Below are positions 4,698-50,452 of a stretch of 64,000 nucleotides of DNA, one piece after another. A model generated the notes under the pieces. It saw only the letters and a list, made by a program, of their open reading frames with translations, was not told the DNA's origin and did not search any database. Origin of the DNA: Candidatus Woesearchaeota archaeon. Its GTDB lineage: Archaea; Nanobdellota; Nanobdellia; SCGC-AAA011-G17; GW2011-AR17. The DNA is taken from assembly GCA_017608525.1 (NCBI GenBank), contig JAFCFS010000001.1:1934-65933 (forward strand), read 5' to 3'. A program made the position numbers and the translations under genes. The stretch's first letter is position 1, and each line of letters begins with the position of its first letter.

Positions 4698-6096
4698 AGA
4701 TCCTTTGGAGATTGTCATTAAAAATCTTATAGAAAGTAATTACGGAACATATGAGCCCCAAAATTCTGAATTATGGCTAAAAATAGTTGGCCAAAATTGG
4801 AATGAAGCTAAAAAACATATAGCAAAAATGCTTTATGATGGGAAGGAAGTTTTTTGCATAAGTAAAATTCTTAAAAATCTCAAAAGAAAAATGAATTGTT
4901 GCTTTGACGAATCTGAAATGAGAGAAATTTACAATCACCTAATTCAAAAAAATGAAATTAATAAAGTTTCGTGGCTTTCTGAATACACTGAAATAAAACC
5001 TTCAGAAAGCCAATTAATGAATATTTGGAAAAAATTTTTTTCAGGATATTGGAATATTTACGAGCTGGAAGAATTGGAAAAGATATTTGGAAAACCAAAG
5101 CTAAGTCAAAAAGATGTAGATGAAATATGCAGCAAATACCTTAGAATATGGCTTGGTAAAGAAAAAACAGATACGGGAATGATGATTCAACCAAAGCAAG
5201 TTAAAAAGTTTATCGAAGAGGTTGGAATAAAACCTAGATGGGACAAAAAAACTGCTGAATTGGTCTACGATAGATGGTTAAGTCATGAAAATCTTATACT
5301 TTTCCTTCAAGAAGAAATTGGCATAAAACCGAATGAGGAAAAGGTACAAGAATACTACAGAAAATTACTTTCAGAAGATATAAGTACAGAATATATTATA
5401 GAAAAGTTAATAAAAGCCGTAAATGTAACAGGGATAATACCAAAAGAAGAATTCGTCGAAAATTTTTATAGAAAACATTTGGGTTATTCGAATGTAGAAG
5501 AAATCAAAAAAGTAGAAAAATTGACCAAAATAAAATGTGATGAAAAAATAGTAAATTTAGTATATTTAAAATTGCTGAAAAAGGGCGATATTGGAGGAAT
5601 TAATTTATTAAGAAATAAAACAAAAATAAAACCAAAATTTTTAGAGAAAGAGGTACAAGTTATTTACGAAAACTTGTTAAGAAATGGCGAAGTTAGAAAA
5701 GCGCTGCATGTTTATTTGTTTACAGAGATAGAACCAAATATCCTAAAAGAAATTGTTATTAAAGCATGCAATCAATTGTTGGTCAAAAAAGTTGATTTTG
5801 AAAATATAGAGCTTTTGGATTGGCTTTTAACGTACTTTGAAGAAGAAGTTACACCATTGCTCCAAGAACACATTTCAAAACTTATTGCCAATGAAAAGTT
5901 TCAAACAGCCGAATATTTGATTTCTAAACTGAATTTTAGATTAAAACCAGAAGAAAAATATGTAGTGCTTTGTAGAAAAGGAGAATGGGAAAAGGCAAAA
6001 AAACTTTACGAAGAATACAAGGATAAAATAAAAACAAAATACCCAGATTATGCAGGCTTAATGGATTTAATCGAGAAGACAGATAAATTTATTTAA
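4681..6096 (+). CDS. helical-repeat protein with ~9 tandem ~34-aa repeats beginning G/K-I-K-P
   Basis: Repeats such as GIKPRWDKKTAELVYDRWL, GIKPNEEKVQEYYRKLL, GIIPKEEFVENFYRKHL, KIKCDEKIVNLVYLKLL, KIKPKFLEKEVQVIYENLL and IEPNILKEIVIKACNQLL, with a TPR/PPR-like period. The start is taken at the internal Met (MEKTNK) to limit overlap. Confidence 0.5.
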   Translation: MEKTNKDPLEIVIKNLIESNYGTYEPQNSELWLKIVGQNWNEAKKHIAKMLYDGKEVFCISKILKNLKRKMNCCFDESEMREIYNHLIQKNEINKVSWLSEYTEIKPSESQLMNIWKKFFSGYWNIYELEELEKIFGKPKLSQKDVDEICSKYLRIWLGKEKTDTGMMIQPKQVKKFIEEVGIKPRWDKKTAELVYDRWLSHENLILFLQEEIGIKPNEEKVQEYYRKLLSEDISTEYIIEKLIKAVNVTGIIPKEEFVENFYRKHLGYSNVEEIKKVEKLTKIKCDEKIVNLVYLKLLKKGDIGGINLLRNKTKIKPKFLEKEVQVIYENLLRNGEVRKALHVYLFTEIEPNILKEIVIKACNQLLVKKVDFENIELLDWLLTYFEEEVTPLLQEHISKLIANEKFQTAEYLISKLNFRLKPEEKYVVLCRKGEWEKAKKLYEEYKDKIKTKYPDYAGLMDLIEKTDKFI

Positions 6097-6120: not shown

Positions 6121-7398
6121 ATGGAGTTGCTATTGCCAAAAGGTACTAGAGATTTTAAGTTTAATGAAGAGATATTAAGGCAAAGAATAATAGCAACAAT
6201 AAAAAAGATTTTCGAACTCCATGGCTTTCTTCCTTTAGAAACGCCTATTTTAGAAAGGTTCGAAATATTAAAGGCAAAATATGCTGGTGGAGCAGAAATA
6301 CTCAAAGAGGTGTTTAAACTAAGAGACCAAGGAGGAAGAATTCTTGGTTTGAGGTATGATCTAACAGTGCCATTAGCTAGATTTATTGCAATTAATCCCA
6401 CTGTCAAGCTTCCTTTCAAAAGGTATCAATTTGGTCCTGTTTTTAGAGACGGGCCTATAAGAACAGGAAGGTACAGACAATTTTATCAGTTTGATGGAGA
6501 CATAATTGGTGTAAAAAATATTTTGGCAGAGGTTGAATTAATCAATATTGTAAAAGAAGTTTTCAAAACCCTTGGTATTGATGTTGTAGTAAAAGTGAAC
6601 AATAGAAAACTGCTCAGCTCGATTCTGAAATACAGTGGTGTGAAGGAAAAATACATTGAAAAAACGATTCTGGCTGTTGATAAGTTGGAGAAAATTGGAA
6701 AAAAAGGTGTTGAAAAAGAATTAAAAGCTATAGGTTTAGAAAACAGAGTAATAAAAAAATTATTTTGGTTTTTAAATAAAAAAGGGAAAGATTTAATTCG
6801 AATTCTTAAAGATTTAATGCCTGAAAATGAAGGACTAAAAGAAATTGACAGTTTGTTTAAGTACATAAAAGAAAAAGATGTCATATTTGATGCTTCTTTA
6901 GCAAGAGGTCTTGTTTATTACACAGGAACAATTTTTGAGGTGTTTGATAAGGAAGGTAGAATTAAAAGCAGTTTGGCAGCTGGTGGAAGATATGACGAAA
7001 TGATTGGAAAATTTGTACAAAAGAATATGGAATTCCCTGCTGTTGGCGTTTCTTTTGGGATTGATGTAATATTTGATTTGCTTAGGAAAAATTTACCAAA
7101 ATTAAGCATTGATGTTTTAGTTATACCAATAAAAGAGTATAAAGAAGCTTTAGAAATTGCAAAAAAATTGAGAAAAAATGGCATCAATACAGACTTTGCG
7201 CTTTCTGAAAGAAGTTTAAGCAAAAATTTGGAGTATGCAAATTCGTTAGGAATCCCTTACGTTATATTTGTCGGAAAGAAAGAACTTGAAAAAGGGAAGA
7301 TTAAATTAAAAAATATGCTTGATGGGGAAGAAAGGTTGATCACTTTGGAGAAAGCAATTAATATCTTAAAAAAGAATCGAAATATTTCTGGATCATAA
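6121..7398 (+). CDS. hisS: histidyl-tRNA synthetase
   Basis: Class II HisRS motifs: LPKGTRDF, GLRYDLTVPLAR, RYQFGPVFRDGPIRTGRYRQFYQFDGDIIG, AAGGRYD. Followed by a C-terminal anticodon-binding domain. Confidence 0.9.
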   Translation: MELLLPKGTRDFKFNEEILRQRIIATIKKIFELHGFLPLETPILERFEILKAKYAGGAEILKEVFKLRDQGGRILGLRYDLTVPLARFIAINPTVKLPFKRYQFGPVFRDGPIRTGRYRQFYQFDGDIIGVKNILAEVELINIVKEVFKTLGIDVVVKVNNRKLLSSILKYSGVKEKYIEKTILAVDKLEKIGKKGVEKELKAIGLENRVIKKLFWFLNKKGKDLIRILKDLMPENEGLKEIDSLFKYIKEKDVIFDASLARGLVYYTGTIFEVFDKEGRIKSSLAAGGRYDEMIGKFVQKNMEFPAVGVSFGIDVIFDLLRKNLPKLSIDVLVIPIKEYKEALEIAKKLRKNGINTDFALSERSLSKNLEYANSLGIPYVIFVGKKELEKGKIKLKNMLDGEERLITLEKAINILKKNRNISGS

Positions 7399-20670: not shown

Positions 20671-20743
20671 GGCGGTAGTAGTATAGTGGCTAGTACACAG
20701 GGCTGTGGCCCCTGGGATGTGGGTTCGATTCCCACCTACCGCC
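20671..20743 (+). tRNA. tRNA-His(GTG) with encoded G-1
   Basis: G-1 + GCGGTAG ... CTACCGC + C73; anticodon arm CAGGG-CTGTGGC-CCCTG; T-arm GTGGG-TTCGATT-CCCAC. Confidence 0.85.
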
Positions 20744-20748
20744 TTAAA

Positions 20749-22137
20749 ATGAGTTTAAAACTATACAATACTTTAACAAGGAAAAAAGAAACATTTAAGT
20801 CAATTAAACCAGGATTCGTTGGTATGTATTGCTGTGGGCCAACTGTTTACAATTACGCTCATATTGGAAATTTAAGAACTTATATATTTGAAGATATCCT
20901 AAAAAGGGTTTTAATTTATAACGGATTTAAAGTAAAGCATGTAATGAACATAACTGATGTTGGGCATTTAACTTCAGATGCAGATGTTGGTGAAGACAAA
21001 ATCGAATTGAGAGCAAGAAGAGAAAAGAAAACGGCATGGGAAATAGCAAAATTCTATACAAGAAAATTTTTTGAAGATATTGAAAGGTTAAATATAATCA
21101 AGCCAGATATAACTCCAAAAGCAACAGAACACATTAAAGATATGATAAGCCTTATAAAAATTCTTGAAAAAAAGGGTTATACTTATATTATAGAAAATGA
21201 TGGTGTATATTTTGATACATCGAAATTTAAGGATTATGGAAAGCTAGCAAGATTAAAGATTGAAGGGCTAAAAGCAGGAGCAAGGGTAGGGTTTGTTAAA
21301 GGGAAAAGAAATAAAACAGATTTTGCATTGTGGAAATTTTCTCCAAAGGGGGTAAAAAGGCAGATGGAATGGGAAAGTCCATGGGGTATTGGGTTTCCTG
21401 GATGGCATATCGAATGTTCTGCTATGGCAATGAAGTATTTAGGAGAACACTTTGATATTCATTGCGGAGGGGTTGACCATATTCCAATACACCATACAAA
21501 TGAAATTGCACAAAGTGAAGCAGCAACAGGAAAAAAATGGGTTAATTACTGGTTGCATGGGGAATTTTTAATTTTGGAAAAAGGCAAAATGGCAAAGTCA
21601 ACTGGAATGTTCATAACGTTACAAAAATTAATAGATGACGGATTTGATCCATTAGATTATAGATATTTCTGTTTAAACGCGCATTATAGGACTCAGTTAA
21701 GATTTAGTTATAAAGCTTTGGAAGATGCAAAAAGGGGATTCGAGCACCTAAAAAACAAGATTATAGAAGTGCTCTCGATTAAAAATAAAGGAAAAAAATC
21801 TACTATAGCTTATGAAAAAAGATTTATGGAAGCTATAAATGACGATCTGAATATGCCAAAAGCTTTAGCAATAGTATGGGATATGCTAAAAGACAATGAA
21901 GTAAGAAATGATTTAAAGTATAAAGCAATATTGAAATTCGATAGGGTTCTTGGTTTGAAATTAGATAAAATTAAAATAGAAATACCTAAAAAAATTAAAG
22001 AATTGTTGGAAAAAAGGGAGGAAGCAAGGAAAAAGAAAGATTTTGAATTGGCTGATAAGATTAGGGAGGAAATTAAAAAAGAGGGCTATGTTATTGAGGA
22101 CACAAAAGAAGGGCCAATTCTTAAAAAAGCAATATAA
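20749..22137 (+). CDS. cysS: cysteinyl-tRNA synthetase
   Basis: [18 protein letters not shown] (HIGH), WHIECS zinc-site context, KMAKSTG (KMSKS). The start is moved to MSLKLYNTL at 20749 because the track ORF's N-terminal 21 codons overlap tRNA-His. Confidence 0.9.
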
Positions 22138-24817: not shown

Positions 24818-25321
24818 ATGGCTAAAAAACGTTCCTTAAATGAGATTGTAAATAATGAAGAAACATCTACATTGGTAATCAAAACTCCAACTAAGGTTGC
24901 TTACCCAGAGGAAGCTATCGATTTTGTTGTAAAGAATTTTAAAAAGAAAGTTAAGGATGAAACAATGATAGAAGATGTTAGATTTGCTGCAGGTGAAATG
25001 GTTGCTAATGCAATAGAACATGGGAATAAACGGGATGAAACGAAACTTGTAAAAATTTATTGTTCTTGGTTTGGCGATGATTTCTATTTCGTTGTACAAG
25101 ATGAAGGTGAAGGATTTGATATAGAAAATCCGAGATATAAGCATTCTCCTCCTGAAGGCGGTTTGGGGATTATTTATACAAAACAAAGGATGGATTTGGT
25201 TTATAATTTTGAAGATTCTGCTTCTTACTTATGCAAAATCTATAAAAGAAAAAAATCAAATTTGCAAAAATCAAGTTTACTAAAGAAAGTTCACAAATTT
25301 TTAAAATCGATAACTTTATAA
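24818..25321 (+). CDS. GHKL/HATPase_c domain protein (RsbW-like anti-sigma-factor-type kinase fold)
   Basis: N-box (AAGEMVANAIEHGN), G1 box (VQDEGEGFD) and G2 (GGLGII) in a 167-aa protein. Confidence 0.55.
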   Translation: MAKKRSLNEIVNNEETSTLVIKTPTKVAYPEEAIDFVVKNFKKKVKDETMIEDVRFAAGEMVANAIEHGNKRDETKLVKIYCSWFGDDFYFVVQDEGEGFDIENPRYKHSPPEGGLGIIYTKQRMDLVYNFEDSASYLCKIYKRKKSNLQKSSLLKKVHKFLKSITL

Positions 25322-25345: not shown

Positions 25346-25978
25346 ATGGAACTAAAAAAAGGGCTGCTTCTTCTCTCAAGCGGAATAGATTCTGTAATTG
25401 CTGGATATATTATTTTAAGCAGTAATATAGAAATTGTTGCAGTGCATTTCATCAATTATCCATACTCAAGTGGAACTTTAGAAAAAGCTAAAATGTTAGT
25501 TAAAAAATTAGAAAAGATAACTAAAAAAGATATTAAGCTATATTCTGTACCAATTGGAGAGCATCTAAAGAATTTTAAAAATAGAGCAAATGAAAAATTA
25601 ACCTGTATTTTTTGTAAAAGGCTGATGTTCAGGATAGGAGAAAAAATTGCAAAAAAAGAGGGCTGTAATTTTTTACTAACAGGGGAGAACTTAGGACAGG
25701 TTGCATCACAGACTTTAGAAAATATGGCAACGATTGAAAGTTGCATCAAAATTCCAGTAATAAGGCCCCTACTATGTTTCGATAAAGAAGAAACTATAAA
25801 AATAGCTAAAAAAATCGGAACATACGATATTTCAATTCAAAAAGAAATAGGTTGTAAAGCTGTTCCAAAATATCCGAGAACAAAGACAACATTGCATGAA
25901 ATTGAAAGGGAAGAAAAAAAATTTAACATTGGAAAAATGATTAAAGAAAGTTTAAAAAGAGTTATTTTAGTTCTTTAA
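25346..25978 (+). CDS. ThiI-like PP-loop sulfurtransferase domain protein (lacks THUMP domain)
   Basis: PP-loop LLLSSGIDS, the ThiI block TGENLGQVASQTLENM, and a CIFC (CxxC) motif like archaeal ThiI. Only about 210 aa, with no N-terminal THUMP region. Confidence 0.6.
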   Translation: MELKKGLLLLSSGIDSVIAGYIILSSNIEIVAVHFINYPYSSGTLEKAKMLVKKLEKITKKDIKLYSVPIGEHLKNFKNRANEKLTCIFCKRLMFRIGEKIAKKEGCNFLLTGENLGQVASQTLENMATIESCIKIPVIRPLLCFDKEETIKIAKKIGTYDISIQKEIGCKAVPKYPRTKTTLHEIEREEKKFNIGKMIKESLKRVILVL

Positions 25979-26618
25979 GTGCCTTCTTCATTTCTTTTCT
26001 TTTTCCAGCCTCCCTAAGCACTATTAAAGTTGCTCCATCTTTTATTACTGTATTTGGCAGGAAGTGAAATTCACCATCTTGATATACTGCAAGCGTTGTA
26101 AAAAAGTTTCCTTTAACCTTATTTATCCTTTTCCCAATTAAATTTGGATAAAATTCAGTTTTCTTTTCCACAATTTCGAATTTTCCACTTCCCAAAACAA
26201 GTTCTGAAACTAATGGTTCTTCAATTTTCAATGCTACATTTGAGGCTGCTGATTCATCAAAGTTTATTGGTATAATATCACTCATTTCCTCTAATAGTTT
26301 GCCGGTTCTCTTATTAACAACCTTTGCGAATATCTTGCTTACGCCTTCTTTTTTGGCATACAAACAAGTTAAAAGATTTGTTTCTTCTCTCTTATCAGCT
26401 GCTACAAATACCTCACATTCTTTTAGGTTCAATTCTTCTAAAATTTTTGGATCGAGTGGATTTCCATTAATTACTATTATACCGCTCTCGGAAGAACTTA
26501 TGTCAAGAGCTTTTTCCTTATCTTCCACAACAACGATTATTTTATTTTCCTTTCTTTCTAGTCTTTTTGCAAGTTCGATAACAAAATCGCTACTTCCTAC
26601 AATAACTATATTGGTCAT
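25962..26618 (-). CDS. trkA: TrkA-like regulatory protein (RCK/TrkA-N NAD-binding plus TrkA-C domains)
   Basis: N-terminal Rossmann IVIVGSSDFVIELAKRL and a C-terminal TrkA-C-like beta domain. Confidence 0.6.
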   Translation of the reverse strand: MTNIVIVGSSDFVIELAKRLERKENKIIVVVEDKEKALDISSSESGIIVINGNPLDPKILEELNLKECEVFVAADKREETNLLTCLYAKKEGVSKIFAKVVNKRTGKLLEEMSDIIPINFDESAASNVALKIEEPLVSELVLGSGKFEIVEKKTEFYPNLIGKRINKVKGNFFTTLAVYQDGEFHFLPNTVIKDGATLIVLREAGKRKEMKKALKELK

Positions 26619-26724
26619 TTTTTAATTTAAGAAATAAAGAGTGCTTAAAAATTTTTTGCATATAAAGAATATCAATTTTCGAAAATTTTATAAATAATTC
26701 GTTACTCTCCAATGGTGTCATTTC

Positions 26725-26730
26725 GGAGGT
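26725..26730 (+). promoter_or_regulatory. Shine-Dalgarno-like RBS (GGAGGT) 5 nt upstream of ATG 26736
   Basis: Seen directly; it supports the internal start for the MoxR gene. Confidence 0.45.
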
Positions 26731-26735
26731 TTAAA

Positions 26736-28088
26736 ATGAAAATCGTTGAAAAACTTAAGGCTTTTGTTGAAAAAACAGCAAATTCAGTACACTACGATAC
26801 GACAAAATTAGATACTGGAACCGAAATAATAGAACACGGCATACTTACACTAGAAACACTCGTTTTTTTACTTAATAAAAAAGCTTTAGTTATGGGTAAC
26901 CCAGGAACAGGTAAAACAAGTTCTGTTAATAAATTAGCTTCCCTTTTAGTTGGTATTCCATTACCATTGGCAGAATCTATCCATTTAAGAGGAAACCCAG
27001 AAGAAACAAAAGAATCGCTAATCGGTAGACCAGATTTTGGAAAATTAAATTTGGGGGATGAAAAGGCATTATTTATATTTGCGCATTTTTTTCCATATCT
27101 TCTTATTGATGAATTAAACAGGCTTAAACCTGGAAAACAGAGTTTGTTACTTCAGGGACTCCAATCTGGGATTTGGAAATACTTAAACGATTATATTAAA
27201 ACAGGAGACAGGCCAGTATTTGCAACCGCCAACCATACTGATGAAGGAACAGAAAAAATAATACCTCCATTGGAAGACAGATTCAATATTTGTTTTGAAA
27301 TACCCCCTTTAAAAACAACCTACGATGTTTTTGATGTCGAAGCCGCTGACACATACGCAAGAAATTTATTAAGTAATGATGAAATAGAAGAAAAAATGTT
27401 AAAGATATTGCTAGATAATAAAAAACCAAATAAAGAAAAACAAATAGAAATCTCGAGGCTTTGCAGAGAATTCCAAGATTACTTAAAAAAAGAGGGTGTA
27501 TTTTTGCTTAGTGAAGAAGATAAGAAGGAGATAAAGAGAAAAATTGAAGAAACTGAATTGTCAACACATTGCAAACTTTACATTGAAGCTGTTTTTCAAG
27601 AAATTAACTATTCCGAATTATACGGTTTTAAAAGGGCGTCTGATCCAATAATTTTAGATACAACTGATAAGAATTATGCCGGAGGAGATGTAGGGTGTGG
27701 ACTTGGAAACAGAGCTGTAGTTGATATGTGGCACATCACTAAAATTTTTGCATTTTTAAGTGGGTGTGAAGAAGCAAATGTAGAACATGCAAAGATGGCA
27801 ATACCTTATGTTTTAAACCATAGATTAAAGTTTACAGCAGATTTTGAAGCGAGATCTGAAAGGAAAAGCAGAAAGGAAATGAAACAACTTGGTCTAACAA
27901 GAATATTACTTGAAGAAATCAATGCAAGGTTCAACCAAGAAGCTAAAAATTTACAGGAAGCATTGTATTGGAGAAAGGAGAAAGGGATCAAAAAAATAGA
28001 GGATTTACCAGACAGGATTAAAGAAAAACTCAAGAATACTAAGTACCCACCTCTTGTAGTTTTTAGAGACTTATATTTTGAAAAATAA
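26736..28088 (+). CDS. MoxR-family AAA+ ATPase
   Basis: Walker A LVMGNPGTGKTS, Walker B LLIDELNR, and a sensor/arginine region. A C-terminal ~150-aa extension follows. Confidence 0.75.
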   Translation: MKIVEKLKAFVEKTANSVHYDTTKLDTGTEIIEHGILTLETLVFLLNKKALVMGNPGTGKTSSVNKLASLLVGIPLPLAESIHLRGNPEETKESLIGRPDFGKLNLGDEKALFIFAHFFPYLLIDELNRLKPGKQSLLLQGLQSGIWKYLNDYIKTGDRPVFATANHTDEGTEKIIPPLEDRFNICFEIPPLKTTYDVFDVEAADTYARNLLSNDEIEEKMLKILLDNKKPNKEKQIEISRLCREFQDYLKKEGVFLLSEEDKKEIKRKIEETELSTHCKLYIEAVFQEINYSELYGFKRASDPIILDTTDKNYAGGDVGCGLGNRAVVDMWHITKIFAFLSGCEEANVEHAKMAIPYVLNHRLKFTADFEARSERKSRKEMKQLGLTRILLEEINARFNQEAKNLQEALYWRKEKGIKKIEDLPDRIKEKLKNTKYPPLVVFRDLYFEK

Positions 28089-29919
28089 AATGTTTGAAAA
28101 AATAATTGAAAAAGAATGGGAAAAAGTTAAAAGAAGATTTATACCTAGTGTTTGGGGTGTAGTAATTGAAGAAGGTGAACACATAAGCATAAATGGTGAG
28201 AAAGAAGAAGTTAAGACTGCAGTATATTCACCAAAAAGGAGAACAATCGTAATAAATCCAGAATTTGTAAAATTTGTTAGCCAAAATCTAGATAACAGTG
28301 AAGTAATAAAAGCGATATTGCTCCATGAGATTGGCCATGAAAGATTCTTTCCGATGAATGCAAAAGCAACCATACTATTGTCTTATTATGCCCATGAAAA
28401 ATTTCCTGAAATAGGCGGTAGAGTGTGGGAGTTGTACGTTGATGTTGTGTGTAATCTCAAAAATATCCTTGTTGGCAATAATGAAATATTAGAATTTTAC
28501 AGAGCTTTGGATAAGCCACCACTCACTATATCTCCAGAAGATAAAGTTTGCAAATACTATTATGAACTCCAGGCAATTGAAGTAAATGAAAAAAATTTAG
28601 ACCAAAAATTAAAAGAGTTGAAAGTTGAAAAAGAACTTATTCCTTATGTTAAAAGAATGCTAGGGATTCCATTTATTCAAGAAGATGGTAGGGTTTTCAA
28701 AAATAGCTGTACAGACAAAGAATCCCTTGAAATCCACAAATCATTAATTTTACGTTTCGGGTTTATTATGGAAGATCTTCTTAAAGATCCTAAATTAGAG
28801 AATGTAAGAAGGAAAAACGAACAAGGGAAAAAGGGACAAGGTAGAGGAGGTGGAAAAGGAAAAAGGCTCGGAGATATAAAATTTACAGAGAAAGAAGTAA
28901 GGGAAGCTATGAAAGAAATAATGAAAGACGTAAGCAAAGAAGAATACGAGAAGATTAAAAAATTTCTTAAAGATAAGTATGGAATTGATTTAGACAAAGA
29001 AAACTCAAATATATTCAAAGGAATAGGAGTTGGGGGCGGAAAGTTTAGATATAATCCAGAAATCATATCATATTATCATGAATTAGCTTCTTCTTTCCCG
29101 TTATATATTAAGAAAAAGCCGATCGTTAGCAATACAGAAGATTTATACCCTGATCACTATACAGAGTGGAATGTCGGCGACCCTGTAAAAAGACTGAATA
29201 TTTATGTTTCTGGTGGCAAAATTTTTCCTGGTATAACTCAAAAAATGGAAGAGAAAAGAGGAAAAGCCTTGCTTGAGCTTGATATACCTCATGCTTTAAT
29301 TATGCTAGATTGTTCCGGAAGTATGCCAAATCCGGTAACAACCAAATCTATGGCTGTTGTTTCAGCTTATTGTTTAGCGATAAACTATCTGCAAAATGGC
29401 TCATATGTTGGCGGGATTGTTTTTGGAGGCGATACATATGTTCATCCATTTACTAGGGATTTATTGGAAATCGAAAGACACTTTACAATTTATGATGGGG
29501 GAGGAACAACAATAAACTTCGAAAAAGTAAAAGAGTTAATTCCAATCCCTGAGTTAAAAAAAATTGAAAAGGGCAAAGAAAATATCGAAGAAAGTGTTAA
29601 AAATTATTTGAAAGAAGAAATGCTTTACAAATATGCATTAGAAAAGAATGTTAAAATAAATACAAATTTCAAAATTGAAGAGTTGAAAAATTTAGACATA
29701 TTTGTCATTACTGATGGAGGAATTTGGAATCTTGGAGAGACTTTAACTTATCTTCATAGTTTTGCAAAGAAGAAAGCAAGAACACATATATTCCACACAG
29801 GGAACAGATACTCTTTTGATAAAAGTAAATTTCCAGAAAATGTTAGTGTTATTCCTATAGATAGCGAGGAGGATTTAATGAAAACAACAATTGGTGTTCT
29901 TAAACAGATTTTCACATAA
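28078..29919 (+). CDS. VWA-domain protein with N-terminal HExxH putative metallopeptidase-like domain (DUF2201_N/DUF2201-like, MoxR partner)
   Basis: N-terminal LLHEIGHERFF (HExxH), a Gly-rich linker, and a C-terminal VWA MIDAS motif LDCSGSM with downstream T and D residues. The alternative start at 28090 gives a 1-nt gap after the MoxR stop. Confidence 0.65.
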   Translation: MKNKMFEKIIEKEWEKVKRRFIPSVWGVVIEEGEHISINGEKEEVKTAVYSPKRRTIVINPEFVKFVSQNLDNSEVIKAILLHEIGHERFFPMNAKATILLSYYAHEKFPEIGGRVWELYVDVVCNLKNILVGNNEILEFYRALDKPPLTISPEDKVCKYYYELQAIEVNEKNLDQKLKELKVEKELIPYVKRMLGIPFIQEDGRVFKNSCTDKESLEIHKSLILRFGFIMEDLLKDPKLENVRRKNEQGKKGQGRGGGKGKRLGDIKFTEKEVREAMKEIMKDVSKEEYEKIKKFLKDKYGIDLDKENSNIFKGIGVGGGKFRYNPEIISYYHELASSFPLYIKKKPIVSNTEDLYPDHYTEWNVGDPVKRLNIYVSGGKIFPGITQKMEEKRGKALLELDIPHALIMLDCSGSMPNPVTTKSMAVVSAYCLAINYLQNGSYVGGIVFGGDTYVHPFTRDLLEIERHFTIYDGGGTTINFEKVKELIPIPELKKIEKGKENIEESVKNYLKEEMLYKYALEKNVKINTNFKIEELKNLDIFVITDGGIWNLGETLTYLHSFAKKKARTHIFHTGNRYSFDKSKFPENVSVIPIDSEEDLMKTTIGVLKQIFT

Positions 29920-29921
29920 AA

Positions 29922-30554
29922 ATGGATTCGTTAGAAAAGTGTTTCAAAAATGTGGAAAACCCAACAGAAGAAAAAGCTTCTGTTGTACTTGGAAATTCAA
30001 TAACAGTTGACGAACTTATTAATATTTTCAAAATAAAAGATGGAAAAATTTTAGGGGTAGTAGATAAAGATGGCCATATAGAATGGAATGAAAAGAAATT
30101 TATGGAAAAATGTGAAGTATTACAATCCTATACTGTAGAAAGGAAAATTCTTAATGAATTTATTTCTTATACAAGAAAAAATATTGATTTTTCATCAAGA
30201 ACAAACCTCCTTGGAGTTGGTGCAATAATCTCTGTTCTTGTACAAATCCTTTACGATAAAGGTGAAAACTACTTTAAATTTGGTGACGTAATTGCTAATG
30301 GCTTTTGTAGTTTTTTGAAAGGCAAAGAGAAAAACAAAATATGGATTCATGTTGATAAACTTTATGGTGAGGGTTGTCTTTTTGGAGCTCAAAATGTGAT
30401 TTTTGATGTCGATGCTCTTTATGGAAACGATCATGCAAATATGATTAAAAATTGTATCATTACTGTTGATGTATTTTCAGGAGAATCATTTTGCAACGTA
30501 AATTTTAATTCCTATTATTGCATAAAAAGAAAATTAAAAAGTTTCAAAAACTAA
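29922..30554 (+). CDS. hypothetical protein, third gene of the MoxR-VWA operon
   Basis: Starts 2 nt after the VWA gene stop. 210 aa with several Cys and no recognisable motif. Confidence 0.4.
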   Translation: MDSLEKCFKNVENPTEEKASVVLGNSITVDELINIFKIKDGKILGVVDKDGHIEWNEKKFMEKCEVLQSYTVERKILNEFISYTRKNIDFSSRTNLLGVGAIISVLVQILYDKGENYFKFGDVIANGFCSFLKGKEKNKIWIHVDKLYGEGCLFGAQNVIFDVDALYGNDHANMIKNCIITVDVFSGESFCNVNFNSYYCIKRKLKSFKN

Positions 30555-31505
30555 ATACACCATATACATTAAATAAATTACAAACAGCAATGTCCCTTCT
30601 ACCCTTGAAAGTCTCAATCTATGAAGAATAAAAAGAAGAAATATAGTTGAAATTATAAGCATAATTGCTGTATCAACTATTAGCCTAGGTACAATTTGTA
30701 ATGGCCTTGTTAATGCGCTTATCCCAACAATCATCAATGTATTAAAAACGCAACTCCCTATAACATTCCCCAAAGCTATGTTTCCTTCTTTCTTTAATGC
30801 TGCCACCACCGAAGTTACTAATTCTGGAAGTGAGGTTCCTATAGCGATAATTGAGAGACTTATTATGGCTTCATTAATCCCAAGATGTTCAGCAATTAGT
30901 ATTGACGAATCAACAGTAAGTTCTGCACCAAGAACAACACCAATTATCGACAAAACTATAAAAATGCAATGCATCAAAAAACTTTTCTTTTTCATCTTAA
31001 ATTCTTTTTCAAATTCTCTAAAAAGCCTAGTAGTTCTCCTTTGCTTGAGTGAAAGTATAGCAGTATAGACCATAAACATAAAAAAGAAAAATAATAGAAT
31101 TATCCCTGCCAACCTTGTTAAAACATATGGCTTATAAAAGAACAAGAGAAAAAAGAGAAGAAGACTACTACCAAGCATGAACGGAGCATCAATAATTAAA
31201 GTTGTTCTCTCAACCAATATTGGGGTAATCAAAGCTGCTAAACCTAGAACTAAACAAATATTTGCAATGTTACTCCCTATTATATTTCCTAACGAAAGAT
31301 TTCCTGAGCCTTTAATTGCGGCAATTACACTAACACTTAACTCAGGAGCGGATGTACCTATGGAAACAATCGTTAAACCAATTATTAATGGCGAAATCCC
31401 CAGATATCTAGCTATTCTTGAAGAACTATCCACTAAAGTTCCTGCAGCCTTCAAAAGGAGAGCTAAGCCAATTATTAAAACCATAAAATAAAATCTTAAC
31501 TCCAT
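30534..31505 (-). CDS. Ca2+/cation antiporter (CaCA family, YrbG-like)
   Basis: Two alpha-repeat signatures, GTSAPELSVSVIAA and GTSLPELVTSVVAA, in a 10-TM protein. Confidence 0.7.
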   Translation of the reverse strand: MELRFYFMVLIIGLALLLKAAGTLVDSSSRIARYLGISPLIIGLTIVSIGTSAPELSVSVIAAIKGSGNLSLGNIIGSNIANICLVLGLAALITPILVERTTLIIDAPFMLGSSLLLFFLLFFYKPYVLTRLAGIILLFFFFMFMVYTAILSLKQRRTTRLFREFEKEFKMKKKSFLMHCIFIVLSIIGVVLGAELTVDSSILIAEHLGINEAIISLSIIAIGTSLPELVTSVVAALKKEGNIALGNVIGSCVFNTLMIVGISALTRPLQIVPRLIVDTAIMLIISTIFLLFILHRLRLSRVEGTLLFVIYLMYMVYLVFETF

Positions 31506-31545
31506 ACTAATTTCTTATTATGGATTTTATTTAATTTTATCGATT

Positions 31546-32976
31546 TTACATCCTTTTAACAATTATAAAGCTTCTTAAGAATACCAAAAATGGGATAATC
31601 TCCATTCTTCCTAAAAGCATATGGATCATAAGTTGAATCTTTAATAATGGAGACATAAAAAAATATTCGTTTGGTTCAAGTACATTAAGACCAACATTTC
31701 CCTGAGCTGAAGCTACAGTAAATACAGATTTCATTACTGGATAACCTGCAAGCATAAAAATCATCGAACCTCCAACCAAAAATGCCAAATAAAGCAAAAT
31801 ATACGATATAGTTTTTAATGCTTCTTCATCAGACATGACTGTGTTTCCCATTTTTATATGTGTTATTGCATGCTCTGGCAAAAAGACTTTTAGTATTTGT
31901 CTTCTAATGACCTTAAACAATACCAAAGTACGCCATAATTTTATTGCCCCACCTGTAGATCCGTATGTTGGGCCGGAAATCATTAAAAAAATAAGAATAA
32001 GCGTAGCAACAGACGGAAATGCTCCTACTGGAAATTTAGTTGTGGCTCCAGTTCCAGTCAATGCTGATACAATATAAAACAACCCATCAAAATAGTTTCC
32101 CTTCTTTGTTAAATAGATTTCAAGAGAAACAAAAGCAAATGCAAATACTATTATGATAAACATAAATATTATTTCAGGATTTTTAAAGAACTGTTTTATT
32201 TTTCCTTTTATAAGATTATAGTGGCTTGCGAAACTTATTCCACCTATAAGCATTAATAAAATTGTTATACACATAGGCATAATTCCAAAATAACCAACTC
32301 CTATCTCATTTGTTGTAAAGCCACCAGTCGCTATTGAAGTAAGAGTGTTAATGAATGCATCAAATAAGGGTACACCAGAAATTAACATTAAACAAAAACC
32401 CAAAAGTGTAAAGAAAGCATATACAAGAACAATCATCCTGGCCACTTTAAGCAAATCTGTATAAAAATTTTCAGATCTTCCTTCTGCCAAAAAAAGAGTA
32501 AATGCCGTTTTTGGTCTTTCATAAAGCAATAAGACTAAGACAACAATACCAAAACCACCAACCCATTGAATTAAACCCCTCCAAAAATTTAAACTTAATG
32601 GTAGATTTTGTGGATTTTGTATCATACTAAAGCCAGTTCCTGTCCACCCAGAAAATGCTTCAAAAAATGCGTCTATAAATTTAATTCCATGCACCAAAAA
32701 TGGTATTGCTGAAGCTAAAGCTATGGATGTCCAGGCCAATGCAAGAGATATTACCGCATGCTTAAGCCTACATTCCTCCTTTTTTAAGAAATATTTGATT
32801 GTTGAAAATACTGCTATGAAGATAACAGCCATCAGTCCAAACAATTTAGTGAATTCTATTTCTTCAACAGCAAAAGAAAAAATTGTTGGCACAAGCAACA
32901 AAAAACCGAACGCCCTAAACATATTTGCTAGAATTTGCAATATGATAAGCCAATCCTTCCTGTGTATTTCCCCCAT
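31546..32976 (-). CDS. trkH: Trk/Ktr-type K+ transporter membrane subunit (TrkH family)
   Basis: Multiple pore-loop-like repeats (GWTGTGFS, SIATGGFTTNE, LTGTGATT) in a 476-aa polytopic protein. Confidence 0.7.
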   Translation of the reverse strand: MGEIHRKDWLIILQILANMFRAFGFLLLVPTIFSFAVEEIEFTKLFGLMAVIFIAVFSTIKYFLKKEECRLKHAVISLALAWTSIALASAIPFLVHGIKFIDAFFEAFSGWTGTGFSMIQNPQNLPLSLNFWRGLIQWVGGFGIVVLVLLLYERPKTAFTLFLAEGRSENFYTDLLKVARMIVLVYAFFTLLGFCLMLISGVPLFDAFINTLTSIATGGFTTNEIGVGYFGIMPMCITILLMLIGGISFASHYNLIKGKIKQFFKNPEIIFMFIIIVFAFAFVSLEIYLTKKGNYFDGLFYIVSALTGTGATTKFPVGAFPSVATLILIFLMISGPTYGSTGGAIKLWRTLVLFKVIRRQILKVFLPEHAITHIKMGNTVMSDEEALKTISYILLYLAFLVGGSMIFMLAGYPVMKSVFTVASAQGNVGLNVLEPNEYFFMSPLLKIQLMIHMLLGRMEIIPFLVFLRSFIIVKRM

Positions 32977-32996: not shown

Positions 32997-33752
32997 TTGT
33001 TTAAAATTTTTTTTGGAAAAGTTTATAAAAACCTCCTATTTGGGAAAGAAAAAATGTCATTAGAAAAAATCTTTAAAGAGAAAATTGAAAATGAAAACTC
33101 TAAAGATTTAAGTTTCGTCAAGCATGATTACTTAATTGAAGAAATACTAAAATTTATAGAAAAAGAACTGGGGAAAAACACTCTTGATTTCAATGGTGTA
33201 ACAAAAAGAACAAAAGATTTTATAAAAAATTATGGGATAACTCCAATGGACATTAGTAAATTGGTTTGTATCGCAAATGACTTTCAACAGGTAAAGAAGA
33301 TGAGGTATTTTCTCGGGACTATTTTTTCAGCAATAATTCAAGAATGCTATGAGCAAGGAAACAGATTTTTCAAATTCGAAAATCTAGAGATACCAGATTT
33401 TGGAAATTGCTTAAAATGTAGCGAAAATGAAAAAATCGAAATTGTGGTAGGGAGAGCAAATGCGGATAATTTATTTTCTGAAGCTCAAAATATTTCGATC
33501 AGTTGTGAAATTCTTGACACCGGTGCTTGGCTATTCTTACATAGAGCAAAAAATTGCTATGCTGAAATTAATAAAGCTAAAGGTTATTTTCTTTTCTGTG
33601 GAGCTGATGGGTGTAGGGCAAAAGTTATCGAATTGGACGAAGAAAAATATCCGTTATACAACTCAATAAATTGTTCACTTTATATAGAAAAAAGTGGGAT
33701 TAAATTAGAAACAACATACTTGGGATTTCTAGAAAGGTCTAAAAGGAAATGA
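32997..33752 (+). CDS. hypothetical protein (Cys-containing)
   Basis: 251-aa ORF. A more likely start is MSLEKIF at about 33054. No motif recognised. Confidence 0.35.
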   Translation: MFKIFFGKVYKNLLFGKEKMSLEKIFKEKIENENSKDLSFVKHDYLIEEILKFIEKELGKNTLDFNGVTKRTKDFIKNYGITPMDISKLVCIANDFQQVKKMRYFLGTIFSAIIQECYEQGNRFFKFENLEIPDFGNCLKCSENEKIEIVVGRANADNLFSEAQNISISCEILDTGAWLFLHRAKNCYAEINKAKGYFLFCGADGCRAKVIELDEEKYPLYNSINCSLYIEKSGIKLETTYLGFLERSKRK

Positions 33753-34000
33753 GAACTGTAAAAGAAGAGCTAAATAAAATCAAATGGGATAAAAGGGAAA
33801 ATCCAGAAGTTTATGAAATCGGGTATTATGATAGAATTTCACAAAAAGAGATAAGAATAAAATTTTGTGAGATAGAAAAAATAGAAGAAGGTTTCATTGT
33901 TGTTAGAGGGAAATTTATACCATTACACAGAATAAGAAAAATTTATAAGAAAGGAAGGCTGGTATGGGAAAGACATGGAATGCAAAAAAAACGAGAATAA
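33749..34000 (+). CDS. small conserved archaeal-type protein (possibly UPF0248/DUF504-like)
   Basis: 83 aa. [22 protein letters not shown] resembles the DUF504 C-terminal motif; assignment tentative. Confidence 0.3.
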
Positions 34001-37373: not shown

Positions 37374-37389
37374 AAATCTTCTTAAAAAT

Positions 37390-37472
37390 GGGCCTATGAT
37401 GTAACGGATAGCATGCACGGCTTCGGATGCAGAAGAAACCGTGTCGTGGAGGTTCGAATCCTCCTAGGCCCA
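37390..37472 (+). tRNA. tRNA-Arg(TCG) with 11-nt intron at canonical position 37/38
   Basis: Acceptor GGGCCTA/TAGGCCC, D-arm ATGT-AACGGATA-GCAT, anticodon stem CACGG, loop CTTCGG^[ATGCAGAAGAA]^A, CCGTG, T-arm GGAGG-TTCGAAT-CCTCC. Loop residues CTTC pair with intron GAAG, giving a bulge-helix-bulge-like splice motif. Confidence 0.65.
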
Positions 37473-37510
37473 TCAAAAACATTTTAAATTTCTAAAATTA
37501 TATTTTTATT

Positions 37511-50321: not shown

Positions 50322-50452
50322 GGGCCCGTAGCTTAGCCTGGTGGAGCATCGGTCTTATATGGCACCATCGGCAACAGCCTAAGAGAGCCGAGGGTCAAGG
50401 GAAGACTCCAGCTCTTGCTGAAGTCTCTTGAATTCAAATCCCTTCGGGCCCA
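50322..50452 (+). tRNA. candidate tRNA-Ile(TAT) carrying two introns (26-nt at 37/38 and ~31-nt in the T-arm at 53/54)
   Basis: Exons assemble to a 74-nt cloverleaf: GGGCCCG-TA-GCTT-AGCCTGGTG-GAGC-A-TCGGT-CTTATA[intron]A-GCCGA-GGGTC-AAGGG[intron]TTCAAAT-CCCTT-CGGGCCC-A. Loop CTTA pairs with intron TAAG (BHB-like). The T-arm intron carries its own hairpin (GACTCCAGC/GCTGAAGTC). Confidence 0.5.

Follow-up and report, generated by a model that had tools for sequence, protein, structure and literature searches.

A recurrent module of a MoxR-like ATPase, a zincin-like/VWA fusion protein and predicted beta-helix proteins in uncultured archaea and bacteria

A stretch of 64,000 nucleotides (nt) from contig JAFCFS010000001.1 of a Candidatus Woesearchaeota archaeon (hereafter called the window) carries on its plus strand three co-directional open reading frames (ORFs), which are separated by spacers of only 1 nt and 2 nt, as read from the sequence. 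The first gene (A) encodes a MoxR-like ATPase of the AAA+ type, the second (V) a protein in which a zincin-like domain is fused to a VWA domain, and the third (B) a degenerate beta-helix protein of which the window holds a second copy. Comparison of related sequences indicates that the three genes belong together in a genuine module that recurs in uncultured archaea and bacteria and has apparently not been described so far. The window has a GC content of about 31% and is archaeal; it encodes the alpha and beta subunits of an archaeal-type phenylalanyl-tRNA synthetase (PheRS) and an MJ1316-domain protein, and its closest relatives are Candidatus Woesearchaeota.

The three ORFs and their motifs GNPGTGKTS, DELNR, HEIGH and DCSGSM had been pointed out in an earlier note on this DNA, and all of them are confirmed. 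The tight coupling that it described also holds; the starts that it gave for the first two genes, in contrast, have to be revised. Gene A most likely starts at the ATG at 26736 and not at 26712, because a GGAGG motif lies at 26725-26729, the Woesearchaeota homolog begins at the equivalent position and a gene call of 450 amino acids (aa; P0195) exists. The start of gene V is most likely the ATG at 28090, 1 nt past the stop codon of gene A (28086-28088), and the resulting protein of 609 aa, instead of 613 aa, is identical to P0001. Gene B (210 aa) starts at 29922, 2 nt past the stop codon of gene V (29917-29919), and its 3' end overlaps a convergent gene for a Na/Ca exchanger by 21 nt (30534-30554). 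Upstream of gene A, TTTTATAAATAA is a candidate archaeal promoter that may serve the three-gene unit. The coordinates of all these features are collected in Table 1.

Table 1. Features of the three-gene unit and of the second copy of gene B, in window coordinates
Feature	Position	Strand	Remarks
Candidate promoter, TATA-box-like TTTTATAAATAA	26686..26697	+	Upstream of gene A; read from sequence
Ribosome-binding site GGAGG	26725..26729	+	6 nt ahead of ATG 26736
Gene A (gene 1), MoxR-like AAA+ ATPase, 450 aa	26736..28088	+	Walker A 26895-26918; Walker B (DE) 27108-27113
Gene V (gene 2), 609 aa, zincin-like HExxH and C-terminal VWA/MIDAS	28090..29919	+	
Gene V, N-terminal zincin-like domain, about aa 1-245	28090..28824	+	HEIGH 28324-28338; D118 28441-28443
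Gene V, Gly/Lys-rich disordered linker and conserved helical middle, about aa 246-345	28825..29124	+	From model and A3 consensus
Gene V, C-terminal VWA part	29125..29919	+	DCSGS 29308-29322; T473 29506-29508; D542 29713-29715
Gene B (gene 3), N-terminal tail of about 23 aa (MDSLEKCFKNVENPTEEKASVVL)	29922..29990	+	Proposed recognition tag; disordered by prediction, yet conserved
Gene B, helical domain (motif G..ISVLVQ.LY), then degenerate GXGXG-type right-handed beta-helix	29991..30554	+	
Second B-family copy, 232 aa (P0004)	33054..33752	+	2.5 kb downstream, past two convergent transporter genes

The product of gene A scores above the Pfam cut-offs for AAA_lid_2 (27.7 bits against 22.7), AAA and AAA_5. 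With AAA_3 (PF07726), the model for MoxR proper, it reaches only 16.9 bits against a cut-off of 27, and it is therefore called MoxR-like in the broad sense only. When a profile of the family (22 members) is compared with known structures, MoxR (2r44) comes first with an E value of 1.9e-18, followed by BchI/ChlI (4.8e-12 for BchI), and relatives of A are labelled 'MoxR-like ATPase' by JGI. Residues G54, G57, K60, T61, D125, E126, T164, N166 and R182, as well as R326, are invariant among the 22 members. The Walker A and Walker B motifs, sensor 1 and the Arg finger, as looked for in MoxR-like ATPases of the helix-2-insert clade, are all intact, and A is presumably active as an ATPase.

Word-indexed homolog searches gave only 2 to 5 close relatives, even with a profile of 41 sequences, and for V a single relative other than itself (52% identity, from a Woesearchaeota metagenome-assembled genome). 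An exhaustive HMMER search was therefore needed; among 1.84 billion cluster representatives, at E <=1e-3, it yielded 301 relatives of V. A scan of contigs with a poor two-sequence pattern matched solely the Woesearchaeota contig that was already known. Database names for V and B are confined to 'hypothetical' and 'vWA domain-containing', and searches of the three proteins in Pfam, NCBIfam, PADLOC and PHROGs gave generic AAA+ matches only, with none for V and B. The VWA fold of V is confirmed by profile and fold comparison, the matches including NorD, midasin and BchD. With the Pfam models VWA and VWA_2 the window protein scores 14 bits, below the cut-off of 27, and 15 of 41 relatives show weak matches. 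The profile check for DUF2201_N and DUF2201 (PF13203/PF09967) that the earlier note had called for was negative in the window protein (E 0.1) and in 50 relatives (40 at E 0.01 and 10 distant ones at E 0.1), and membership of V in DUF2201 is rejected. Signals of a peptidase-like nature were all below threshold, namely M48 and, for a profile of the N-terminal domain against PDB sequences, the minigluzincin projannalysin (E 0.12-0.4). As far as these comparisons go, V combines a zincin-like with a VWA domain and comes from a family for which Pfam has no model.

The AlphaFold2 model of V, with a mean predicted local distance difference test score (pLDDT) of 82.6, consists of four parts. An N-terminal beta-sheet followed by helices (pLDDT mostly >85) precedes a Gly/Lys-rich linker that is predicted to be disordered (pLDDT <50 at residues 250-262 and 309-318), a helical middle region (helices 267-297 and 323-334), for which the A3 consensus shows conserved Y/E/IK and GIG motifs, and a C-terminal alpha/beta domain. 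Conservation was counted over 231 family sequences, among those covering each position. The MIDAS (metal ion-dependent adhesion site; DxSxS...T...D) is formed by D407, S409, S411, T473 and D542, each of which is conserved in 97-100%. In the N-terminal domain, about 95% of the sequences carry H79 and H83, and 199 of 200 carry P88; alignments A3 and A9 show no variation at H79, E80, H83, P88 and D118. The model places HEIGH (residues 79-83) within helix 69-85. A candidate third ligand, for which the earlier note had proposed to look, is D118 (185 of 203 sequences, or about 91%, have D and 10 have E), with N, D or E four residues further on, at position 122. Both lie on helix 109-127, with a spacing that we take to be that of the ExxxD in the 'glutamate helices' of gluzincins. 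The catalytic Glu (E80) is kept in about 80% of the family. The window protein, to which the earlier note had ascribed a putative peptidase-like head, retains E80 and has an intact HExxH...D...N site. In a bacterial sister clade (L018, L020, L023, L029, L030, L037 and related loci), HExxH is replaced by H[GA]xxH...CPWD; both His residues and D118 are kept and a conserved Cys is gained, so that this clade looks, from its alignment, as if it has kept the metal site without the catalytic base.

The third gene, which the earlier note had left as a protein of unknown function, can be placed by way of its relatives. It matches its paralog in the window with an E value of 3e-7 in BLASTP, and a hidden Markov model (HMM) detects this paralog with an E value of 6.6e-83. 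The clade of gene B itself is very rare, with five clusters among 5.8 billion. When an HMM is made solely of the copies in the window and in the Woesearchaeota contig L001, it detects five tandem genes that flank the A-V pair of a Nanoarchaeia-type locus (L011; E about 1e-15), and iteration of a B-family HMM over 80 related loci converges at 96 ORFs. Canonical members of this family match the Pfam model GXGXG (PF01493), and the family profile matches FwdC (E 2.5e-28) and the C-terminal domain of glutamate synthase (E 2.9e-11). The Woesearchaeota-type and the canonical clade are aligned by hhalign over 187 columns with a probability of 93.8% and an E value of 1.7e-7; this alignment covers a helical domain (motif G.F.SALI) as well as the beta-helix, and the fold assigned to B is that of a right-handed beta-helix. 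Gene B itself does not match PF01493, and its glycine motifs are degenerate. Its AlphaFold2 model, made from an alignment of 5 sequences, has a pLDDT of 74 and comprises a disordered tail, a helical domain and beta-strands; Foldseek found nothing significant for it in the PDB. Taking profiles and model together, gene B encodes a beta-helix protein of the GXGXG type that is degenerate and poor in glycine and has a helical domain of a novel kind at its N-terminus.

The neighbourhood of V was surveyed in the 80 related loci, 77 of which are non-redundant. In 41 of the non-redundant loci the sequence reaches 2.3 kb or more upstream; 36 of these have gene A upstream of V and on its strand. Both flanks are available for 30 loci; A is present in 26 of them, B, as detected by HMM, in 19, and both in 16, and at least one further B-like gene (in L004) was overlooked by the HMM. 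Soil lineages and Desulfobacteraceae/Thermodesulfobacteriota have the order A-B-V with a single B. In other loci the order is A-V-Bn or A-Bn-V-Bn, and B reaches about 11 copies at most (L008; 9 in L006 and 8 in L047). In the closest relative, the Woesearchaeota contig L001, five B paralogs surround A-V; the fifth is cut at the end of the contig and one overlaps the stop codon of V. Since the order of ATPase and VWA gene and the homologs of gene B recur in dozens of independent metagenomic loci, the arrangement is not a matter of chance. The earlier proposal of a conserved three-component MoxR-like/VWA module is thereby sustained, as is the co-occurrence of the third gene with the A-V pair in related genomes. 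No other gene family is recurrent around the triad in the 80 loci. The system occurs in DPANN archaea, Desulfobacterota and uncultured soil lineages. A phage or plasmid origin was rejected, with no tblastn match in 50,697 phage records, no match in PHROGs and none in plasmid collections. A full-text literature search for GXGXG together with MoxR, vWA or AAA+, with subscription literature outside its coverage, found nothing relevant.

Among the B paralogs of L001 there are also two paralogous small membrane proteins (5178-5750 and 6974-7279; mutual E 4e-15). They share the C-terminal motif ...G.L...EK.EIC..TG....IPY.SLE.YVE.Y.K and have no homolog within the window. In some distant loci the slot of the third component is occupied by proteins of 245-297 aa without Pfam match, which belong to one or more families and mostly lie between A and V (L014 4159-5858; L015 15-866 and 4863-5732; L019 891-2499; L062 1956-2693).

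The B proteins carry a short motif ahead of their folded domains, which reads LENVFGKPEKVEPEKKLEV in Woesearchaeota and RFGGFKPESE..VR, AADLFDGLDPEE...RK or NPFEAFRSY...RELPLDRI in others. In gene B this tail is predicted to be disordered (pLDDT <50 at residues 1-23), and within its clade the tail blocks are conserved as strongly as the protein core. The third components of L014 and L015, although not homologous to B, bear the same kind of N-terminal tail (F..F.PE...R; for example, FRRFKPEPTHEVRKP). Similar tails on different B subfamilies and on these non-homologous proteins are the pattern expected of a shared recognition tag. The tails also differ with the type of V: where HExxH is intact, the tails are acidic and of the 'PE' type and B is usually present in several copies; where V has H[GA]xxH instead, there is one B, with an 'NPFxxFR' tail.

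The plus-strand triad splits trkA (25962-26618) from a Na/Ca-exchanger gene (30534-31505) and trkH (31546-32976), all three on the minus strand, and the second B copy sits beyond trkH. The module looks as if it was inserted into, or rearranged within, a cation-transport cluster (25962-32976). The second B copy overlaps by 4 nt an 83-aa MJ1316-domain gene (33749-34000; PF04457, E 2.2e-18), which suggests translational coupling of two seemingly unrelated genes. On the trkA side, a 167-aa HATPase_c_2 protein of the anti-sigma-factor/serine-kinase type (24818-25321; E 2.8e-15) and, downstream of it, a stand-alone ThiI-domain gene (25346-25978) are encoded. Elsewhere in the window, a 131-nt Rfam tRNA match (50322-50452; 34.6 bits), not called by ARAGORN, is probably an intron-containing archaeal tRNA; tRNA-Pro (37389-37474) is long as well, with 86 nt. 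The mechanical ORF for cysteinyl-tRNA synthetase (20686-22137) begins within tRNA-His (20671-20744), so that the true start must lie further downstream, at a Met that is probably the one of MSLKLYN.

With B as the only recurrent neighbour of A and V, the beta-helix proteins are the best candidates for clients, and the cation transporters that the earlier note had in mind are not supported. That B is the cognate partner of the A-V pair can be regarded as very probable. By analogy with known MoxR-VWA pairs, it is further proposed, with somewhat less than even confidence, that the B proteins are clients of the A-V machine, which are captured by their tails and remodelled. From the linkage, the domain identities and the conservation patterns, which are established, we infer the following binding, cleavage and assembly steps. 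V would be a cochaperone that docks on a hexamer of A and captures the disordered, acidic N-terminal tail of B. In the window, gene B and its paralog at 33054 would both be such clients, and not a regulator of something else. During capture, a Glu of the tail may complete the metal coordination of the MIDAS, and/or the tail may be held in the zincin cleft. The A hexamer would then use ATP hydrolysis to remodel the V-bound B. In the clade with an intact HExxH, to which the window belongs, the tail would in this scheme probably be cleaved, and the cleaved B would thereby mature or become free to assemble into an oligomer or filament. Taken by itself, such a cleavage step is conceivable and rather doubtful. 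There is a precedent for the capture in the MIDAS site of CbbO, which engages an acidic residue of a client that is remodelled by CbbQ, and Rea1/midasin has a comparable working mode (PMC4660213).

Several observations weigh against this proposal. About 20% of V proteins, those of the bacterial single-B clade, have G, A or Q in the place of E80, which means that peptidase activity cannot be a universal core of the mechanism and that cleavage cannot be general. Some loci (L020, L030 and L053) have B and V with no adjacent A. Distant relatives, for example in Thermoflexales/Anaerolineae, have unrelated third components without Pfam match. The pairing of HExxH type and tail type is suggestive, but it comes from about two clades and could be purely phylogenetic. 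The structure models are of monomers, and the contact between tail and V is one that we infer.

It could also be imagined that B is not a client but assists, as an adaptor or accessory subunit in the manner of a specificity factor, an A-V chaperone that acts on an unlinked cellular complex, as RavA-ViaA act on respiratory complexes. GXGXG beta-helices are indeed scaffolding domains in the FwdC and glutamate synthase complexes, and the variable third components of distant loci could be alternative adaptors; furthermore, the substrates of MoxR-VWA pairs are often encoded elsewhere (PMC4660213). Up to about 11 tandem paralogs per locus would be unusual for adaptors, however, no other neighbour is conserved, and a tail common to unrelated third components resembles a substrate tag more, so that an adaptor role seems rather unlikely. 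A function in biological conflict, considered in the earlier note, is quite improbable. The ternary architecture, the variable third component and the tandem, fast-diverging paralogs would be in accordance with it, and the known MoxR-vWA ternary systems are conflict systems (PMC7159879). Yet there is no match in PADLOC, PHROGs or the plasmid and phage collections, no effector domain or effector-associated domain (EAD) was found, V has a reversed architecture with the zincin at its N-terminus, the VWA at its C-terminus and no effector, the third component is not VMAP, iSTAND, FtsH or a beta-propeller, and the module occurs in tiny DPANN genomes beside housekeeping genes.

The module could instead be a metallochaperone: the H-x-x-x-H...D site of V would hold a metal ion, and the ATPase would help to place it in a client, on the pattern of NorQ/NorD, CoxD/CoxE and the chelatases. 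Conservation is higher at the ligands H79, H83 and D118 than at the catalytic Glu, BchI comes second among the structural relatives of A, and the VWA domains of NorD and BchD are among the fold matches; B proteins, however, have no conserved Cys or His cluster and no evident metal site, and no metalloenzyme is a conserved neighbour. Such a metallochaperone is considered very improbable. A chelatase of the BchI/BchD/BchH type for Mg or Co is rejected as well: the N-terminal half of V is zincin-like and not AAA-like, and no H- or CobN-like gene lies nearby. An action of the A-V pair on the adjoining cation transporters (TrkA/TrkH and the Na/Ca exchanger) is suggested by the position of the triad between trkA and the genes for the exchanger and TrkH. 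In the related loci, transporters recur beside the triad in 0 of 80, and in the Woesearchaeota relative nothing but B paralogs and small membrane proteins surrounds the pair. This absence of conserved linkage largely refutes the transporters as targets; they are rejected, and the idea has hardly any likelihood left.

The client of most MoxR-VWA pairs is not known. The proposal that B proteins are tail-captured clients of A-V is of interest in this respect, as comparative genomics provides here both candidate clients, the tandem beta-helix paralogs, and a candidate recognition element, the N-terminal tail. Moreover, its mechanism is testable with three small soluble proteins. Should a structure be assembled from the beta-helix proteins, the module would constitute an ATP-dependent assembly system that is new, and it would do so in genome-reduced DPANN archaea, in which retained gene families are likely to be important. 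It would also give a stand-alone role to the GXGXG domain, which to our knowledge has so far been found only as a scaffold within FwdC and glutamate synthase. It is possible to speculate further about a 'tag-and-process' assembly system, in which a short N-terminal tag marks beta-helix families, and elsewhere unrelated folds, for a dedicated ATPase and zincin-VWA machine. This machine would bring them to maturity and would build or remodel a structure of heteropolymeric nature within the cell, for example a scaffold or something akin to a cytoskeleton, in DPANN archaea as well as in several uncultured lineages of bacteria. As a whole, this extended reading is considered unlikely.

The module may finally be compared with systems that are already known. 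As in the MoxR-VWA pairs CbbQ/CbbO, NorQ/NorD, RavA/ViaA and CoxD/CoxE, an AAA+ gene of the MoxR/chelatase clade stands before a gene whose product has its VWA domain at the C-terminus, with a perfect MIDAS, and the same logic of client capture by the MIDAS and ATP-driven remodelling would be expected. Unlike these pairs, V has an N-terminal zincin-like HExxH domain, the conserved third partner belongs to a GXGXG beta-helix family that is often present in many tandem copies, and there is no linked enzyme client such as Rubisco, nitric oxide reductase (NOR) or carbon monoxide dehydrogenase (CODH). The MoxR plus metallopeptidase-vWA fusions of the DUF2201 type have the same order, with a metallopeptidase-like head before the VWA and a MoxR-like ATPase beside it; the pair described from jumbo-phage group 2.2 has been predicted to couple assembly with the processing of structural proteins (PMC7824862). 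In contrast to them, V has no match to DUF2201, PHROGs or phages, and the present system is cellular and has dedicated beta-helix partners.

MoxR-vWA ternary conflict systems with VMAP, iSTAND, FtsH or beta-propeller components, which show an enrichment among multicellular bacteria, likewise combine a MoxR-vWA core with a conserved third component (PMC7159879). The present module differs from them in its third component and in the architecture of V, and it has no effector or EAD domains. Given a GXGXG beta-helix as third component, a V without C-terminal effector and no match in PADLOC, identity with any of the four described systems (Kaur et al. 2020, PMC7159879) was rejected. With the GXGXG proteins FwdC/FmdC/FhcC and the C-terminal domain of glutamate synthase (PF01493), B shares its predicted fold; it differs in being stand-alone and in adding a novel N-terminal helical domain and a conserved tail, its genes are not linked to Fwd or Glt genes, and the Woesearchaeota-type copies have lost glycines. 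For clients that are structural proteins, the best functional analogy would be the trio p618/p892/p800 of the Acidianus two-tailed virus (ATV). In this trio, a MoxR protein (p618) and a VWA protein (p892) interact with p800, a structural protein that polymerises into filaments, and they have been implicated in the building of a filamentous structure, in the development of the viral tail (PMC4124505). The trio differs in that it is viral, lacks a zincin domain and has clients that are not beta-helices. It is likened to the A-V-B module by function, with no claim of homology.

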